Source: a virus
Taxonomy: Duplodnaviria; Heunggongvirae; Uroviricota; Caudoviricetes
Reading direction: 5' to 3' (one strand)
IMG/VR virus record: IMGVR_UViG_2778261341_000005
Length of the DNA stretch: 35,293 nt
Part shown: one piece after another, positions 1,294 through 35,293 of the stretch
How positions within the stretch are numbered: the stretch's first letter is position 1
How the letters are laid out: every line of letters begins with the position of its first letter
Notes under the pieces: model-generated
What the model saw: the letters and a program-made list of their open reading frames with translations, nothing else
The model's database searches: none
Told to the model about the DNA's origin: nothing
Program-made: the position numbers and the translations under genes

Positions 1294-1407
1294 TACCCAA
1301 TTTTTCTGAATCTAAAAAGCGCCTGCGGGTGGTTTTAGTGGGAGATTAACATATTGAAAATAAAGATTTTTTATTTTCATGTGTCCAGATAACGTCCATC
1401 TTTGAAA

Positions 1408-1450
1408 CAAAAAGCCCGCAGTTTTTTTACGCCGCGGGCTTTGTTTTTCT
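1408..1450. terminator. hairpin terminator downstream of serS, apparently bidirectional
   Basis: aaagcccgc ... gcgggcttt stem with A-run on the 5' side and tttgttttt on the 3' side; read on the minus strand it is the counterpart of the terminators that end hok units 2 and 3. Confidence 0.55.
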
Positions 1451-1533
1451 TTGTGACTTTTGTGTGAGGGTGCGACTTTCGACCGAACCTTTGGCAACCG
1501 GATAGCGGGGGCTTTCACCCCCGCTGCGGTTTC

Positions 1534-1674
1534 TTACGGTTTACACTGCAAGAACGCCGCAAATTCTGACCACATGATGTTAAGTCTGAACTCACACGGA
1601 GAACGGTGTATCATCCAGACGGTCAACAACATGGTTAAGCATAAAATGCTCACGATGATCGTTTTTTGCGGCAT
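1534..1674 (-). CDS. Hok/Gef-family type I toxin, copy 1 (46 aa)
   Basis: Minus-strand ATG with AAGGAG Shine-Dalgarno; product MPQKTIIVSILCLTMLLTVWMIHRSPCEFRLNIMWSEFAAFLQCKP: one TM helix then a C-E-F-R ... E-F-A-A-F block as in Hok/Gef. Six substitutions relative to copy 2 without frame disruption. Below the 60-aa track threshold. Confidence 0.7.
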   Translation of the reverse strand: MPQKTIIVSILCLTMLLTVWMIHRSPCEFRLNIMWSEFAAFLQCKP

Positions 1675-1715
1675 AGCGCTTGACTCCTTTTACAGGGAGG
1701 CGCTAACCTTCCACT

Positions 1716-1775
1716 TGTCTAGGGTAGGAAGGGTTAGGCCTCGGGTTAAACAAATGTTTTACTCGGGGCCTTTCC
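1716..1775 (+). ncRNA. putative Sok-like antisense RNA, unit 1 (boundaries approximate)
   Basis: Plus-strand TTGACT (1680-1685) and TAACCT (1704-1709) promoter-like hexamers antisense to the hok leader, then ggccucggg ... cucggggcc hairpin plus UUU. Confidence 0.3.
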
Positions 1776-1891
1776 ACATCCGGCCTTCAGGTATTCCTTC
1801 CAGCCGTCAGCCGAAAGGCACCCGCATGTAATTTACTGATTTCCCTTTGTGTGCGCAATGCTCAGTATTGAAGCTGTTGAGGGGAGACGGC

Positions 1892-1916
1892 AAAAAAAAG
1901 CCCGCATATTGCGGGC
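1892..1916 (-). terminator. intrinsic terminator ending the hok unit-2 transcript
   Basis: gcccgca-tat-tgcgggc hairpin preceded on the plus strand by A8, i.e. followed by U8 on the minus strand. Confidence 0.55.
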
Positions 1917-2006
1917 AATGAAGTCAGTACGCTAACCCAAAAGGGTGCCATATCAGCCGAACCCGGCAACCGGATAGCGGGGGGCTTTCACCCCCGCTGC
2001 GGTTTC

Positions 2007-2147
2007 TTACTGTTTACACTGCAAGAACGCCGCAAATTCTGACCACATGATGTTAAGCCTGAACTCACACGGTGAGTTGTGTATCATCCAGACAATCATC
2101 AAAATAGTTATGCATAAAATGCTCACTATGATCGTTTTTTGCGGCAT
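2007..2147 (-). CDS. Hok/Gef-family type I toxin, copy 2 (46 aa)
   Basis: Translated codon by codon from the sequence: MPQKTIIVSILCITILMIVWMIHNSPCEFRLNIMWSEFAAFLQCKQ; AAGGAG 10 nt upstream of ATG; TAA stop at 2007-2009. Confidence 0.72.
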   Translation of the reverse strand: MPQKTIIVSILCITILMIVWMIHNSPCEFRLNIMWSEFAAFLQCKQ

Positions 2148-2188
2148 AGCGCTTGACTCCTTTTACAGGGAGGCGCTAACCTTCCACT

Positions 2189-2248
2189 TGCTTAGGGTAG
2201 ATGGTCAGGGCCTCGGGTTAACATTAAAGTTGACTCCGGGGCCTTTCC
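2189..2248 (+). ncRNA. putative Sok-like antisense RNA, unit 2 (boundaries approximate)
   Basis: TTGACT 2153-2158, TAACCT 2177-2182; hairpin 2209-2243 (ggccucgg / ccggggcc with a G-U pair) followed by UUUCC. Confidence 0.3.
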
Positions 2249-2364
2249 ACATCCGGCCTTCAGGTATTCCTTCCAGTCGTCAGCCGAAAGGCACCCGCAT
2301 GTAATTTACTGATTTCCCTTTGTGTGCGCAATGCTCAGTATTGAAGCTGTTGAGGGGAGACGGC

Positions 2365-2389
2365 AAAAAAAAGCCCGCATATTGCGGGC
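2365..2389 (-). terminator. intrinsic terminator ending the hok unit-3 transcript
   Basis: Identical hairpin plus A8/T8 tract, 473 bp from the unit-2 copy. Confidence 0.55.
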
Positions 2390-2479
2390 AATGAAGTCAG
2401 TACGCTAACCCAAAAGGGTGCCATATCAGCCGAACCCGGCAACCGGATAGCGGGGGGCTTTCACCCCCGCTGCGGTTTC

Positions 2480-2620
2480 TTACTGTTTACACTGCAAGAA
2501 CGCCGCAAATTCTGACCACATGATGTTAAGCCTGAACTCACACGGTGAGTTGTGTATCATCCAGACAATCATCAAAATAGTTATGCATAAAATGCTCACT
2601 ATGATCGTTTTTTGCGGCAT
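2480..2620 (-). CDS. Hok/Gef-family type I toxin, copy 3 (46 aa)
   Basis: Nucleotide-identical to copy 2 over the ORF (shifted by 473 bp). Its upstream promoter differs from copies 1-2 but keeps TTGCAC-N17-TAAATT on the minus strand (~2776-2806). Confidence 0.68.
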   Translation of the reverse strand: MPQKTIIVSILCITILMIVWMIHNSPCEFRLNIMWSEFAAFLQCKQ

Positions 2621-2661
2621 AGCGCTTGACTCCTTTTACAGGGAGGCGCTAACCTTCCACT

Positions 2662-2718
2662 TGTCAGGTAGGAAGTGTCAGGGCCTCGGGTTAACGTTAG
2701 TTGACTCGGGGCCTTTTC
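2662..2718 (+). ncRNA. putative Sok-like antisense RNA, unit 3 (boundaries approximate)
   Basis: Same promoter hexamers as unit 2 shifted by 473 bp; hairpin 2682-2713 with a different, shorter loop than units 1-2. Confidence 0.28.
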
Positions 2719-2775
2719 ACATCCGGCCTTCAGGTATTCCTTCCAGCCGTCAGCCGAAAGGCACCCGCGCGTAAT

Positions 2776-3440
2776 TTACCTTTTACGTCCGTTACGTGCA
2801 ACGGATGACGTGGCTGTTTTTCCTTCCCCTTCGCCATCCTTTTTCGGAGCAGTTGTGCAAAAGTGTGCAAAAGTGATTTTTGCTGCCACTCCCCGCCAGG
2901 CCGCGCCAGTTCTGGCTTTCCTGATTTTTTCGTTTTCGTCGTCGGATCCTTTTTCAGATCTTCGATCGTGACGTAATTTTAAAAATCTCTTGTTATTCAG
3001 TGCATTAAATTTTTTCGGGATCCTCAGAAAGCCGGAGTTTTTGCACACTTTTGCAAAACCTTGCACAAAGTGCAAAACCATTCAGAAGGGAAAACCTCAG
3101 TAATGGCGCGCCCTGGCGGGGTGTTTTGCACCCATTTCGATTTGCAAAATTTATCGTACACAAATACCGGAGGCGTGTGCGGGGTAGCGCCGATTACGTC
3201 ACTTTACGCGTTACGTCGCCCCCGAAAATTTCCGGCCATTTGCGGCGATTCTGGGGCGCAGAAATCGTTTTCTGATGTCAGGGGATCGAATCGGGCCGGC
3301 GGGGTTATCTCTTCGTTACGTGGCGTTACGTGACGTTTTACGCGGGGATTACGTGGGGCGTTTCGTCCATCTTTTTTTCTGCTGCGGGTGGTTTTTTCGT
3401 GGTGGGTGATGTCCGGTGATGAATATTTTTTATTGTCGTG
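2776..3440. promoter_or_regulatory. non-coding block with operator-like and iteron-like repeat arrays (function unknown; possible att or regulatory region)
   Basis: No convincing ORF. Inverted copies of tgcaaaagtgtgcaaaa at ~2861-2884 and ~3040-3060 flank an AT-rich GATC-containing spacer; palindrome TTGCACaaaGTGCAA at 3061-3075; further TTGCA half-sites at ~3124 and ~3141. Direct (c)gTTACGTg repeats cluster at 2786-2806, 3193-3220 and 3314-3356. Confidence 0.35.
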
Positions 3441-3446
3441 GGAATA

Positions 3447-3476
3447 AAAAAGGCCACATTGCGCGGCCTGTTAAAA
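3447..3476 (-). terminator. intrinsic terminator at the end of the late/tail operon
   Basis: Minus-strand ggccgcgcaatgtggcc hairpin followed by ttttttatt, immediately after the stop of the 557-aa gene. Confidence 0.55.
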
Positions 3477-3483
3477 TGAATAA

Positions 3484-5157
3484 CTATTCGATTATTGGTG
3501 AATATTTATTTTTAAGCTGGCGGCACTCCTGAGCGACCTGGCTGAACTGTGCGGCCTGCGGAGACGTGCCCGTTTTGGGGTGGGTATGTGATGCTGTAAT
3601 ATCTGCCAGCTCTTCCACCACATCGGCAAGGTCCGTCAGCATGGTCAGTACATTAATGCCCTCGTTTCCCAGCTTCACCGTATCGCCAACCAGCTTCTGC
3701 GCCAGCGCAATACTGTGACGGACGCCCTTAATCTTTTCGGTAAGGCTGCCGCCCACGGTGTCCTGGGTGTCGCCTTCCACGTCGCGCTCACAGGTACCGG
3801 CAACCACCATCATGTGCCCGCCCGTGCTGATGCTGTAGTTCTCTTCAGTGATATGGGTGACCGCGCCAGCCTGAAGCGTGGATACGCCCAGGACGGTGGT
3901 TGTGTCGGTTGCCTGTATGGTGGTCTCCCGGCTGGTCAGGCTCCGCTTTTCCTCGTCTGCACTCACCACGCGCTCGCGTGATGTCTCCTGTATCCGCTGG
4001 TCTGTCTGGCGCTCCCAGTCTCCGGCGACCGTCACGCGCTGCGATACGCCGTCGCGCTGTTGCTGCAACTGCTCGCCCGGCTTCACGTCGGGCAGATTGT
4101 GGCCCTCTGCCATTATCTGGCGGATGAAGGGCTTATCCGCCCGGCCTTCCACAAATCCCACTTCCACCAGGGTTCCGGGCGGCGGGAACTGGAACATGCC
4201 GGACTCACTGCCCGCCATGGGAACGGGGAGGGGAACGGCGTTATAAACGGGCGTATCCGCTGCCGGGTTGCCGTTCTCGTCAAGCAGCTGGAGATTCACC
4301 GCGTAGCGGGGTCTGAACGGGTCGGCAATATTGCCCGCGCTGACGGCTTCGGTCGGCGCCTCAACACGTGCCAGTTTGGGCAGGTGAAGCCCTGATGCCA
4401 GTTCAGGGAAGGCCTTTTCAGCCTGGCGACGGAAAGGGGACTTCTGGAGGGGGGCGCCGGTGGCTTTATTGCGTGGTGTCCACGTGATGGTCATGTTGTC
4501 ATCTTCCAGCATGACCATCGTCAGGCGCTGACCGTTCACCTCCACACCCGGTCGCAGCGTCGGAATCATCGGGAGGGTCATACTGTGCCCGCCCGTTGAT
4601 GCCTGGCTGAACTCGTGCGGGATGGTGACGGGGCGACCGGAAAACATCCCCTGCGCGGCAGCAGCGGCCATAATGCCGCCGTCCGGTAACGGATGCCAGA
4701 TGTAATCCGGTACGGAGAAAATACGCCCCAGACTGGCCAGCAGTTCGTAGCCCGTGCCGCTGTGTGTGAAATGCGGAACGGGTCTGTCAGTGTAAGCCGC
4801 GTTGTCCGGCAGGATGATTTCCAGCCCGCTGGCCTCACTCAGCCACTGTGTGACCGTGCGCATTGTCGGGTGCTGAAATGAACAGGGGAAGGGGTGATCA
4901 AGGATCCCCGCCATTTCACGAATCAGAAGCCGCACCGAGCCGTTTTCAGCGGGCTGGCTGCGTTCAACGTATCCGGTAAACCAGCGCACCAGGTCGTTTC
5001 CGTATCCGATATCGAGACGAACGGGGCGCCCGGTGTAGTTCTGCTCTGTTCTGGCCGTGATAAATCCGCGTCCGCACGCGTTCAGCTCAAGCATGACGGA
5101 ACAACTGACCAGCTGAATGGTGTCGTTACCCAGTAACAGACGTTTAGTGGGGTTCAT
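3484..5157 (-). CDS. baseplate hub / central spike protein (gpV-like OB-fold; possibly a gpD-gpV, VgrG-like fusion)
   Basis: 557 aa; mid-protein segment VPLPVPMAGSESGMFQFPPPGTLVEVGFVEGRADKPFI resembles the gp5/gpV/VgrG OB-fold motif; C-terminal SHTHP near the tip (His-x-His apex as in spike proteins); last gene of the tail operon. Confidence 0.5.
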   Translation of the reverse strand: MNPTKRLLLGNDTIQLVSCSVMLELNACGRGFITARTEQNYTGRPVRLDIGYGNDLVRWFTGYVERSQPAENGSVRLLIREMAGILDHPFPCSFQHPTMRTVTQWLSEASGLEIILPDNAAYTDRPVPHFTHSGTGYELLASLGRIFSVPDYIWHPLPDGGIMAAAAAQGMFSGRPVTIPHEFSQASTGGHSMTLPMIPTLRPGVEVNGQRLTMVMLEDDNMTITWTPRNKATGAPLQKSPFRRQAEKAFPELASGLHLPKLARVEAPTEAVSAGNIADPFRPRYAVNLQLLDENGNPAADTPVYNAVPLPVPMAGSESGMFQFPPPGTLVEVGFVEGRADKPFIRQIMAEGHNLPDVKPGEQLQQQRDGVSQRVTVAGDWERQTDQRIQETSRERVVSADEEKRSLTSRETTIQATDTTTVLGVSTLQAGAVTHITEENYSISTGGHMMVVAGTCERDVEGDTQDTVGGSLTEKIKGVRHSIALAQKLVGDTVKLGNEGINVLTMLTDLADVVEELADITASHTHPKTGTSPQAAQFSQVAQECRQLKNKYSPIIE

Positions 5158-29197: not shown

Positions 29198-29376
29198 GGT
29201 GTTTGGCCTCTTGTAGTAAGTTCTGAAAACTCACCATCCAGAGCTGCGAAACAGTGGGTGGCGAGACGTACGAGGTTCGCAGTACCGGCTACAAGAGATC
29301 CCGGCCCGACCGAAGTCGGCCCCGTACGCCCCGCCATAATTCTGACGCGAAAAAGACGTGGCGATACAGTACGCAC

Positions 29377-29397
29377 AAAAAAACCGCTGGCGCGGTT
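29377..29397 (-). terminator. intrinsic terminator inside the early region (putative)
   Basis: Plus strand aaaaaaa + accgctggcgcggt: read on the minus strand a GC hairpin followed by T7. Confidence 0.4.
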
Positions 29398-29519
29398 GTG
29401 CGCTCTTGTAGTCGGCAGGCTGCGAAACCCGGCACCCGTTTTATGAGGTGCAGCGGGAATGTAACCTGACTGATTGCGGCATGGCAAGCGGTTTTTTTGT
29501 GTGTGCATGTTCTGGTTTC

Positions 29520-34231: not shown

Positions 34232-34300
34232 CGTTACACATCGAGCGGGTTTCATCCCGCAGGGAGTGTTTGGTTAATTTATCCGTTGGAGGGGCTAATC

Positions 34301-35293
34301 ATGTCGATTAAGCAACTCAAAGACGGACGTTATAAGGTTGATGTAAGGCCACAAGGGACGGAAGGAAAGCGGATTCGTAAGATTTTTACCCTGAAGTCAA
34401 AGGCGCAGGAGTTTGAAAGGTATGTTTTGCAGAATTTTCATGATAAGCCATGGCAGGCTAAGCCAGCAGATCAGCGTCGGTTATCCGAACTGATAGAGGC
34501 CTGGTGGTTGCTTGATGGTCGTAACCAGGATTACGGGGATACCTACAGGGTCAGACTGGAAAAGATAAACCGTGAGATGGGTGATCCTCGTGCCAGTCAG
34601 ATGACGCGAAAATTTATGCTCGGGTACCGGTCCGACAAATTACAGGCCGGGTTAATGCCTTCCAGCATTAACCGCGATTTGTGTGCCTTGTCTGCAATGT
34701 TCAGCTCGCTGATTGAGGGTGAGGTGTTCCATAACGAAAACCCGGTTCGGGGAATACGTAAGCTGAAAGTCAGGAACACAGAGATGGCCTTTCTTTCAGA
34801 TGAGGAGATTGAACGACTGCTTGAACGACTCGATGGAGATGCGCGGCGTGTTGCCATTCTGTGTCTTTCCACGGGGGCAAGGTGGGGCGAAGCAGCTGGT
34901 TTACGTGGGGAACATATTGTAGGTAACCGCGTGATGTTCTTTAACACCAAGAACGGAAAATCTCGCGCCGTTCCCGTTTCTGATGCGGTACTTGCGTTAA
35001 TTAAAACCCGCAGAACCGGATTGTTGTACCAGGCTGATTACCTCAGATTTCGGGAGATCCTTCAGGAGGTGAAGCCGGACTTGCCGAAAGGGCAGGCCAC
35101 CCATGTCATGCGTCATACATTCGCTACACATTTCATGATGAATGGCGGAAATATCGTTACGCTACAACGAATCCTGGGCCATGCCACGATTCAACAAACG
35201 ATGACGTATGCGCATTTTTCGCCGGACTTTTTACAGGATGCAATCAGCTTTAATCCGCTGGCTGAAAGTGTCCATAAACTGTCCATCGATTAG
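34301..35293 (+). CDS. int: tyrosine integrase (P2 Int family)
   Basis: MSIKQLKDGRYKVDVRPQGTEGKRIRKIF ... ILCLSTGARWGEAAGL ... HVMRHTFATHFMMNGGNIVTLQRILGH ... YAHFSP matches P2 Int blocks including the catalytic R..H..R..Y region; stop is the last codon of the window. Confidence 0.93.
   Translation: MSIKQLKDGRYKVDVRPQGTEGKRIRKIFTLKSKAQEFERYVLQNFHDKPWQAKPADQRRLSELIEAWWLLDGRNQDYGDTYRVRLEKINREMGDPRASQMTRKFMLGYRSDKLQAGLMPSSINRDLCALSAMFSSLIEGEVFHNENPVRGIRKLKVRNTEMAFLSDEEIERLLERLDGDARRVAILCLSTGARWGEAAGLRGEHIVGNRVMFFNTKNGKSRAVPVSDAVLALIKTRRTGLLYQADYLRFREILQEVKPDLPKGQATHVMRHTFATHFMMNGGNIVTLQRILGHATIQQTMTYAHFSPDFLQDAISFNPLAESVHKLSID

Follow-up and report, generated by a model that had tools for sequence, protein, structure and literature searches.

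The stretch of DNA considered here, the 35,293-nt Caudoviricetes record IMGVR_UViG_2778261341_000005 (called the window below, always at its full length), carries beside the serS gene a tandem array of three loci that we interpret as hok/sok modules, pairs of toxin and antitoxin belonging to type I. Tandem Repeats Finder resolves positions 1493-2779 as a single array with a period of 473 (2.7 copies, 94% matches). Each repeat contains, on the minus strand, an open reading frame (ORF) of 46 codons, and an AAGGAG Shine-Dalgarno (SD) sequence lies 9 nt 5' of every ATG (1684-1689, 2157-2162 and 2630-2635); the three tandem units and the SD sequences proposed in a preliminary description of this DNA are thereby borne out in 3/3 copies. 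Copies 2 and 3 share one peptide, from which that of copy 1 departs by six substitutions (L13I, M15I, L17M, T18I, R24N and P46Q). The span first assigned to the array, 1481-2780, was too narrow: because copy 1 ends in its own hairpin and T5 run at 1409-1439, the functional array covers about 1409-2801. Our overall reading, to which we give a probability of roughly 85%, is that three tandem hok/sok modules are carried as cargo at the attachment-site (att) end of a prophage that has an int-C-cox module of P2 type and lies between serS and dmsA, and that each unit specifies, on the minus strand, a structured mRNA of about 400 nt for a 46-residue membrane toxin with a single helix and, on the plus strand, Sok, an antisense RNA some 60-65 nt long.

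Membership of the three predicted products in the Hok/Gef family is supported by profile matches and by individual residues. Both distinct peptides exceed the gathering score of Pfam HOK_GEF (PF01848; 27.8 and 29.4 bits against 22), with residues 9-44 aligning to positions 7-42 of the 42-position profile, in agreement with the Hok/Gef architecture first proposed; they also match PHROG 251 at 69-72 bits. Each has a single hydrophobic helix near the N terminus and retains the family's C-x-T, CE and E positions, C12-x-T14, C27-E28 and E37 being the counterparts of C16, T18, C31, E32 and E41, each of which is more than 80% conserved in 1264 Hok peptides; the conserved L30 of those peptides is P26 in the window copies. 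Identity is 45% to HokA of K-12, with the C-x-T, CE and E..AAF positions aligned, and 32% to Hok of plasmid R1, again with the conserved positions aligned. The ratio of nonsynonymous to synonymous substitution rates (dN/dS) comes to 0.23 for copy 1 against copy 2, and to 0.24-0.30 against alleles from Shiga toxin (Stx) phages and Salmonella, values to be read with the reservation that RNA-structure constraints overlap the hok ORF. Selection on the peptide had been argued from six codon changes with an intact frame; that is weak evidence, and the dN/dS ratios support the claim better. Positions of the features are collected in Table 1.

Table 1. Features of the hok/sok array and its left boundary in the window (promoters, transcripts and sok genes are predictions)
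Feature	Position	Strand	Details
hok, copy 1	1534-1674	minus	46 aa, MPQKTIIVSILCLTMLLTVWMIHRSPCEFRLNIMWSEFAAFLQCKP; Pfam HOK_GEF 27.8 bits; product of RefSeq WP_001135720.1
hok, copy 2	2007-2147	minus	46 aa, MPQKTIIVSILCITILMIVWMIHNSPCEFRLNIMWSEFAAFLQCKQ; Pfam HOK_GEF 29.4 bits; product of RefSeq WP_032209945.1
hok, copy 3	2480-2620	minus	peptide identical to that of copy 2
hok promoter-like site, copy 1	1830-1858	minus	TTGCGC-N17-TAAATT; -35 1853-1858, -10 1830-1835
hok promoter-like site, copy 2	2303-2331	minus	TTGCGC-N17-TAAATT; -35 2326-2331, -10 2303-2308
hok promoter-like site, copy 3	2773-2801	minus	TTGCAC-N17-TAAATT; -35 2796-2801, -10 2773-2778; in unique sequence outside the repeat
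Predicted hok mRNA, copy 1	1409-1823	minus	about 415 nt; 5' end GGGUGCC at 1823; hairpin and T5 1409-1439
3' fold-back element, copy 1 mRNA	1468-1486	minus	
3' stem-loop, copy 1 mRNA	1496-1531	minus	
Predicted hok mRNA, copy 2	1892-2296	minus	about 405 nt; terminator 1892-1916; fold-back 1943-1960; 3' stem-loop 1968-2004
Predicted hok mRNA, copy 3	2365-2766	minus	about 402 nt; terminator 2365-2389; fold-back 2416-2433; 3' stem-loop 2441-2477
Anti-SD hairpin, copies 1, 2, 3	1675-1704, 2148-2177, 2621-2650	minus	AAGGAG with CUCC; predicted dG -10.5 kcal/mol
Predicted sok gene, copy 1	1680-1775	plus	promoter TTGACT-N18-TAACCT 1680-1709; RNA 1711-1775
Predicted sok gene, copy 2	2153-2248	plus	promoter 2153-2182; RNA 2184-2248
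Predicted sok gene, copy 3	2626-2718	plus	promoter 2626-2655; RNA 2657-2718
Rfam sok match, copy 1	1663-1823	minus (hok strand)	51.3 bits, E 5.5e-10
Rfam sok match, copy 2	2136-2296	minus (hok strand)	44 bits, E 4.8e-8
Rfam sok match, copy 3	2609-2766	minus (hok strand)	35.8 bits, E 7.2e-6
24-codon leader ORF, copy 1 only	1703-1777	minus	GUG...UAG; ends at the invariant UAG abutting the anti-SD hairpin
3-codon ORF GUG-GAA-GGU-UAG	1703-1714 (copy 1)	minus	present in all three copies
Attachment-site core CCTGCGGG	1322-1329		inside the serS terminator; prophage starts just right of the core

A hok-type mRNA architecture is likewise supported, by an RNAalifold consensus from an alignment of 22 distinct units drawn from the window, E. 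coli prophages, Stx phages, Salmonella and E. albertii. In this consensus the 5' end (GGGUGCC, UCGGCUGA) folds back upon elements about 350 nt downstream (UCRGYYGA, GGCACCC) through 14 pairs, which are 98-99% paired in the 22 sequences, four of them with one-sided changes. The consensus further contains the hairpin that pairs the SD with CUCY (helices 7 and 8, 100% paired across the alignment), pairing of the AUG-region sequence AUGCCGCAAA with UUUGCGGCGU at codons 38-41 or so, and a GC-rich 3' stem-loop (helix 15, 99.5% paired) in which compensatory changes, GC to AU and AU to GC, occur at 4/9 pairs. Over the whole structure paired cells make up 98.9%, a share that drops to 34-43% once partners are shifted by 1-3 columns, and compensatory double changes affect 11 pairs against 1-5 after such shifts, counts that carry the caveat that the consensus was derived from the very alignment on which they were made. 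In every model of a full-length or 3'-trimmed mRNA the first two G of the GGAG core have a probability of being unpaired of at most 0.04, and its last two bases of at most 0.27, save for 0.73 at one base of full-length copy 3. The minimum-energy fold of copy 1 pairs nt 1-11 with nt 344-356, at a 5'-3' pairing probability of 0.99.

Signals that could delimit the transcripts accompany each unit. The -10 element of the putative hok promoter is nearly conserved in the family, mostly as TAAATT, with TACATT in three members and TAGATT or TAGAAT in the Salmonella and E. albertii loci. The hairpin and T8 terminator, at first ascribed to every unit, is found for copies 2 and 3; copy 1 has in its place the different hairpin followed by T5. 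On the opposite strand, the predicted Sok RNAs are 62-65 nt long and consist of a 5' tail of 25-26 nt (26 nt in copy 1), a strong hairpin and a UUUCC end; they would be antisense to nt 49-113 of the hok mRNA leader. The Rfam sok model (RF01794, gathering score 59 bits) describes the hok-strand leader up to the AUG, and it is on this strand that the matches in Table 1 lie.

Whether the array is host or prophage DNA, a question that the preliminary description had left to a comparison with prophage-free E. coli, is settled by that comparison: on the sequences aligned, the array belongs to the prophage as cargo. K-12, a P2-like lysogen and the window share one sequence as far as about position 1329 and diverge beyond it, and the 238-bp serS-dmsA spacer of K-12 is devoid of hok array sequence. 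In a genome of 99.5% identity the core octamer CCTGCGGG recurs between int and dmsA, and the other end of the insert there consists of an integrase, a helix-turn-helix (HTH) repressor and Cox (int-C-cox), adjoining dmsA; the end of the window is that same integrase (34286-35293; Pfam Int_N and Phage_integrase). From 3484 to 35293 the prophage combines this P2-type int/HTH repressor/Cox module with structural genes for which the only relatives in the phage collection were Salmonella phages SI7, SW3 and SW5 (73% identity at 11% query coverage); the product of 3484-5157, 557 aa long, gives only a weak, sub-threshold Phage_base_V match. In another strain, a P2-like prophage (ogr, gpD) at the serS site has the same left end and two hok copies, the array adjoining ogr, and a third strain has three hok copies with other alleles at spacings of 474 and 724 bp. 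Among serS-site arrays (L041 5068-6406, L002 6240-6852, L011 and L018) there are one, two or three copies spaced by 458-724 bp, and one such array mixes peptides of the MPQK and MSQK clades. The hok array occurs at the end of two different, unrelated prophage types integrated at serS; it belongs to the phage and sits at its att end.

Several results weigh against this overall reading and set its limits. The peptides do not reach the cut-offs of the NCBIfam HokA equivalog and Hok models (NF007290, 38-41 bits against 89; NF007279, 27-30 against 73), and because they fall so far below both we treat them as a separate clade. The Rfam sok matches are statistically significant yet sub-threshold (36-51 against 59 bits). 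A consensus promoter scan of 1294-3483 reported none at its thresholds; the hok and sok motifs do occur at the originally proposed spacing in all copies, but both are weak matches, so that the claim of promoters draws on their conservation and position only. The fold-back helices show one-sided variation and no compensatory double changes in the 22 sequences, and in the single-sequence minimum-energy structures the fold-back is not adopted by copy 2 or copy 3 (5'-3' probabilities of 0.57 and 0.0). Finally, single-sequence folding of the 3'-trimmed mRNA gave no sign of activation, the SD being mostly paired in both forms.

The mechanism we envisage combines two kinds of argument, comparative sequence for the fold-back lock and the sequestration of SD and AUG, and the R1 paradigm for trimming, Sok pairing and toxin release. 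In the full-length mRNA, pairing between the 5' end (GGGUGCC..UCGGCUGA) and the distant 3' element would act as a lock, while the strong SD would be held in its local hairpin and the AUG region by the codons near the end of the frame. By analogy, 3' trimming back to the GC-rich stem-loop would allow the 5' end to refold as a GGGUGCCUUUC/GAAAGGCCCC stem, Sok would bind through its 5' tail, and the duplex would be destroyed, as by RNase III in relatives. Once the short-lived Sok was no longer made, the stable mRNA would be translated, and Hok would be expected to collapse the membrane potential.

The principal departure from the R1 design concerns mok. As first described, there is no canonical mok: inspection of the frames in all three copies found none that overlaps hok in a mok-like manner. 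A UAA in CUGUAAAAGGAG closes the hok frame, and an invariant UAG, part of GGUUAG, closes the second; for the third frame, closure lies upstream in copies 1 and 2, and in copy 3 that frame is open but lacks an ATG, GTG or TTG. In copies 1 and 2 every frame is closed or start-less within 45 nt 5' of the hok AUG, and a mok-like overlap is likewise missing from the 933W, Salmonella and E. albertii relatives. In R1, by contrast, mok must be translated as far as the hok SD or beyond (PMC9841398). Since no mok frame reads into hok, Sok would have to act here by destruction of the mRNA or by obstructing either a short leader ORF or a ribosome standby site.

The strongest alternative is that regulation follows R1 exactly, by way of a leader peptide: ribosomes would translate a short equivalent of mok whose stop is the invariant UAG (1703-1705 and its repeats), the terminating ribosome would melt the anti-SD arm, and Sok would block this leader frame. 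Some ORF ends at that UAG in 19/22 family members, either the 3-codon GUG frame or one of 16-25 codons from an AUG or GUG at nt 44-46, behind GAAGG, or both; the UAG sits at the base of the SD hairpin, Sok spans the body of the long leader ORF, and translation up to the hok SD is what decides the outcome in R1 (PMC9841398). On the other hand, the long ORF is intact only in copy 1, copies 2 and 3 retaining GUG-GAA-GGU-UAG with no SD ahead of it; three relatives have no ORF ending at the UAG; and the long ORF survives in 5/12 distinct alleles, which is not significant against our own chance estimate of about 0.2-0.25. Nor does the invariance of the UAG call for a leader ORF, because UAG is the complement of the sok -10 element (TAACCT). 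Taking both sides together we consider a translated leader peptide unlikely. A narrower candidate, the 3-codon GUG mini-ORF as a conserved substitute for mok, was rejected as unsupported, the GUG being GUA in the Stx-phage clade and the mini-ORF absent in E. albertii.

A second feature of the array is where its copies differ. Copies 2 and 3 are distinguished by 15 differences, 14 of which fall within a 68-column segment encoding Sok and its target, and none within some 240 columns of SD region, ORF and 3' untranslated region (UTR). The independent two-copy array L011, on a viral contig, repeats this pattern (16/65 in the Sok segment against 0/240 elsewhere), and for nine co-resident pairs from five arrays the differences per site are 0.24 in Sok, 0.03 in the leader, 0.08 in the SD region, 0.12 in the ORF and 0.13 in the 3' UTR. 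Across the array-forming MPQK clade variability again peaks in the Sok segment (0.169, with the ORF at 0.054); the Sok segment of the single-copy Stx clade is, unlike this, not unusually variable (0.029 against 0.022). Predicted duplexes between Sok tails and their targets are much more stable for cognate pairs (-48 to -50 kcal/mol) than for non-cognate ones (-23 to -33 kcal/mol), which share only 7-9 contiguous matches, and Sok and ORF alleles recombine, L018 combining the copy 2 Sok segment with a copy 1 type of ORF.

These observations are compatible with a tentative proposal, against which we would still lay the odds: that tandem copies are kept as mutually insulated pairs, the 65-nt Sok/target segment being swapped or diversified as a cassette, so that each Sok would silence mainly its own hok and would do so without an overlapping mok, by mRNA destruction or by occlusion of the leader or standby site. 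Relaxed constraint on a segment whose complementarity is maintained in cis, together with patch recombination between paralogues, could produce the same pattern without selection. The finding that co-resident copies always differ is not significant alone, because many alleles circulate.

It is also conceivable that the copies are decaying relics, homologous to active loci yet no longer expressed or toxic, as are most chromosomal hok loci of K-12. IS150 cuts K-12 hokA from its leader, so inactive hok loci are common; the promoters here are weak, and copy 3 carries a G-to-A change in the tac-stem partner (GAAAAGGCCCC). Decay is nevertheless improbable, for all three ORFs are intact, free of insertion sequences and frameshifts, with the low dN/dS ratios given above; the SD, SD hairpin, 5' end and fold-back are identical or compatible in all copies and the 22 relatives; the exact peptides recur on hundreds of contigs; and 42/45 diverse Hok homologs were toxic in a published test (10.1101/2025.08.07.668861). 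The notion that the repeat is no gene array at all, being instead a non-coding repeat family or coding for the plus-strand ORFs that do exist here (123, 85 and 84 aa), can be dismissed as very improbable, since those ORFs vary in length and start from copy to copy, have no Pfam match, and run antisense to a frame scoring above the Pfam Hok/Gef cut-off, as their initial designation as the antisense strand of hok loci anticipated, and since covariation backs the RNA fold of the minus strand.

The preferred reading of three hok/sok modules makes them most likely toxin-antitoxin cargo of the prophage, and three roles are compatible with it. Killing of cells that lose the prophage would fit both the position at the att end, which is that expected of a module penalising prophage loss or acting in the lysogen, and the logic of a stable mRNA with an unstable Sok. 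Aid to lysis after induction may be considered by analogy with a different locus, hokW, and exclusion of other phages by analogy with R1 hok/sok, for which exclusion is cited in another paper. No PADLOC model matches the hok peptides, and a defence role thus has no backing from that library.

Integration exchanges the 3' arm of the serS terminator (window 1310-1440), GCGCCTGCGGGCGC and T7 in K-12 becoming GCGCCTGCGGGTGG and TTTTAG in the lysogen. The phage-supplied hairpin at 1409-1439 has T-runs on both strands, and could stop both plus-strand read-through from serS and minus-strand hok copy 1. The motif CGTTACGT occurs at least four times in the interval from the array to the tail genes (2790-2799, 3209-3218, 3314-3333; also 3193 and 3348). 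The copy at 2790 lies inside the palindrome CCGTTGCACGTAACGG and overlaps the -35 (TTGCAC) of the copy 3 hok promoter; because of this overlap, copy 3 alone might be under the control of a phage factor. Further decamers resembling TGCAAAAGTG are found in 2850-3137, as direct copies at 2856 and 2866 and inverted at 3039-3068 and 3124-3137, close to a 27-nt inverted pair (2888-2914 and 3098-3124). Their order, A, B ... A', B', means that they do not form one hairpin, and the cluster resembles a group of binding sites for a protein; it falls within a minus-strand ORF (2776-3081) that RefSeq names a hypothetical protein, with no Pfam or PADLOC match. Elsewhere, the early region of the prophage contains, on the minus strand, an Rfam C4 antisense RNA (29254-29341, 81.1 bits) with isrK adjacent to it (29377-29451, 65.5 bits), both above gathering scores.

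As a gene find the array adds nothing, because RefSeq already has all three hok genes, as does a curated Hok catalogue. The loci had been called hidden, and they are indeed missing from the first-stage ORF track; RefSeq, through its annotation pipeline PGAP, however already calls three genes for a 'Hok/Gef family protein' at exactly these positions, adjoining serS, in the 99.5%-identical genome of E. coli O22:H8. The exact peptides sit in public clusters named Hok/Gef family protein, with about 640-1000 contigs, and megablast places the repeat unit in 666/5426 complete E. coli genomes. An exact 23-nt pattern had no match in contigs representing one genome per species, and a protein-pattern scan yielded no more than six loci, those of Salmonella and E. 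albertii and of three assemblies bearing other labels. These last (L035, L036 and L038) are near-identical enterobacterial hok loci in assemblies labelled Planococcaceae, Vagococcus and Xanthomonas pisi, most likely through assembly contamination.

The catalogue, in a 2026 preprint, comprises 1264 Hok peptides, among them the exact copy 1 peptide (#1307); it reports hok to be enriched in prophages, and 10% of Hok homologs (13.5% on Escherichia chromosomes) to lie in 'islets' of 2-6 copies arising by local duplication (10.1101/2025.08.07.668861). Type I modules repeated within one intergenic region, ibs/sib and ldr/rdl, had been noted by 2010 (PMC2887945). Published surveys left mok and Sok-segment features aside on purpose; Sok and mok are outside the scope of the islet survey, and the concentration of differences in the Sok segment does not appear in it. 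What remains of interest is modest and lies in the mok-less design and in the divergence of Sok segments between tandem copies. If the first is true, a clade without mok, set against the mandatory mok translation of R1, would offer another means by which Sok and hok translation are coupled. Copy-specific antitoxin logic has been reported for the ibs/sib family, and copy-specific Sok segments, if true, would extend a similar logic to hok/sok.

Among known systems the closest relative is the unnamed 46-aa hok of Stx phages (933W, Sp5/VT2-Sakai and Stx2-86), situated between lom and L0129, classed as cluster 72 of the 2026 catalogue and as PHROG 251 'MokW-like host killing', with 78-89% nucleotide identity to the window unit over 377 nt. 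It shares the 46-codon ORF, the SD-AUG segment, the 5' end, the fold-back element, the absence of mok and a phage carrier; it differs in being single-copy, in its peptide (MSQKSL... against MPQKTII...) and in its placement in the late or moron region rather than at the att end. Its 933W allele, 72_1589, 57% identical to the window peptide and of the same 46-aa clade, was cloned for the toxicity set, in which 42/45 homologs were toxic, and is absent from the three non-toxic ones (10.1101/2025.08.07.668861). The published hokW-sokW of Sp5 is also a prophage-borne hok/sok module, one that helps lysis and phage release after induction and stands alone among prophage hok loci in having had its role tested (Takada et al. 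2021, PMC8621323). Identity with it was considered and rejected: HokW has 51 aa and its cloning primers encode MKQQKAM...DYESEK (PMC8621323), and the 933W/Sp5 homologue of the window unit is a separate 46-aa ORF beside lom. Because hokW is thus a different locus and clade, the results obtained with it are not simply transferable. HokA of K-12 resembles the window peptides in its MPQK start and WMI..S.CE core as well as in overall identity, and differs in that hokA carries an annotated mok; orthology to HokA was rejected on the NCBIfam score (38-41 bits against a cut-off of 89). With hok/sok/mok of R1, finally, the array has in common a single-helix toxin with CE-R and E-AAF motifs, a cis-antisense RNA gene, predicted in the window, against the mRNA leader, and the arrangement of a fold-back between the 5' end (tac) and a 3' element (fbi), a sequestered SD and a protective 3' stem-loop (PMC9841398). 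It departs from R1 in the length of the toxin, 46 against 52 aa, and in its carrier, R1 being a plasmid and the window a prophage with three tandem copies.

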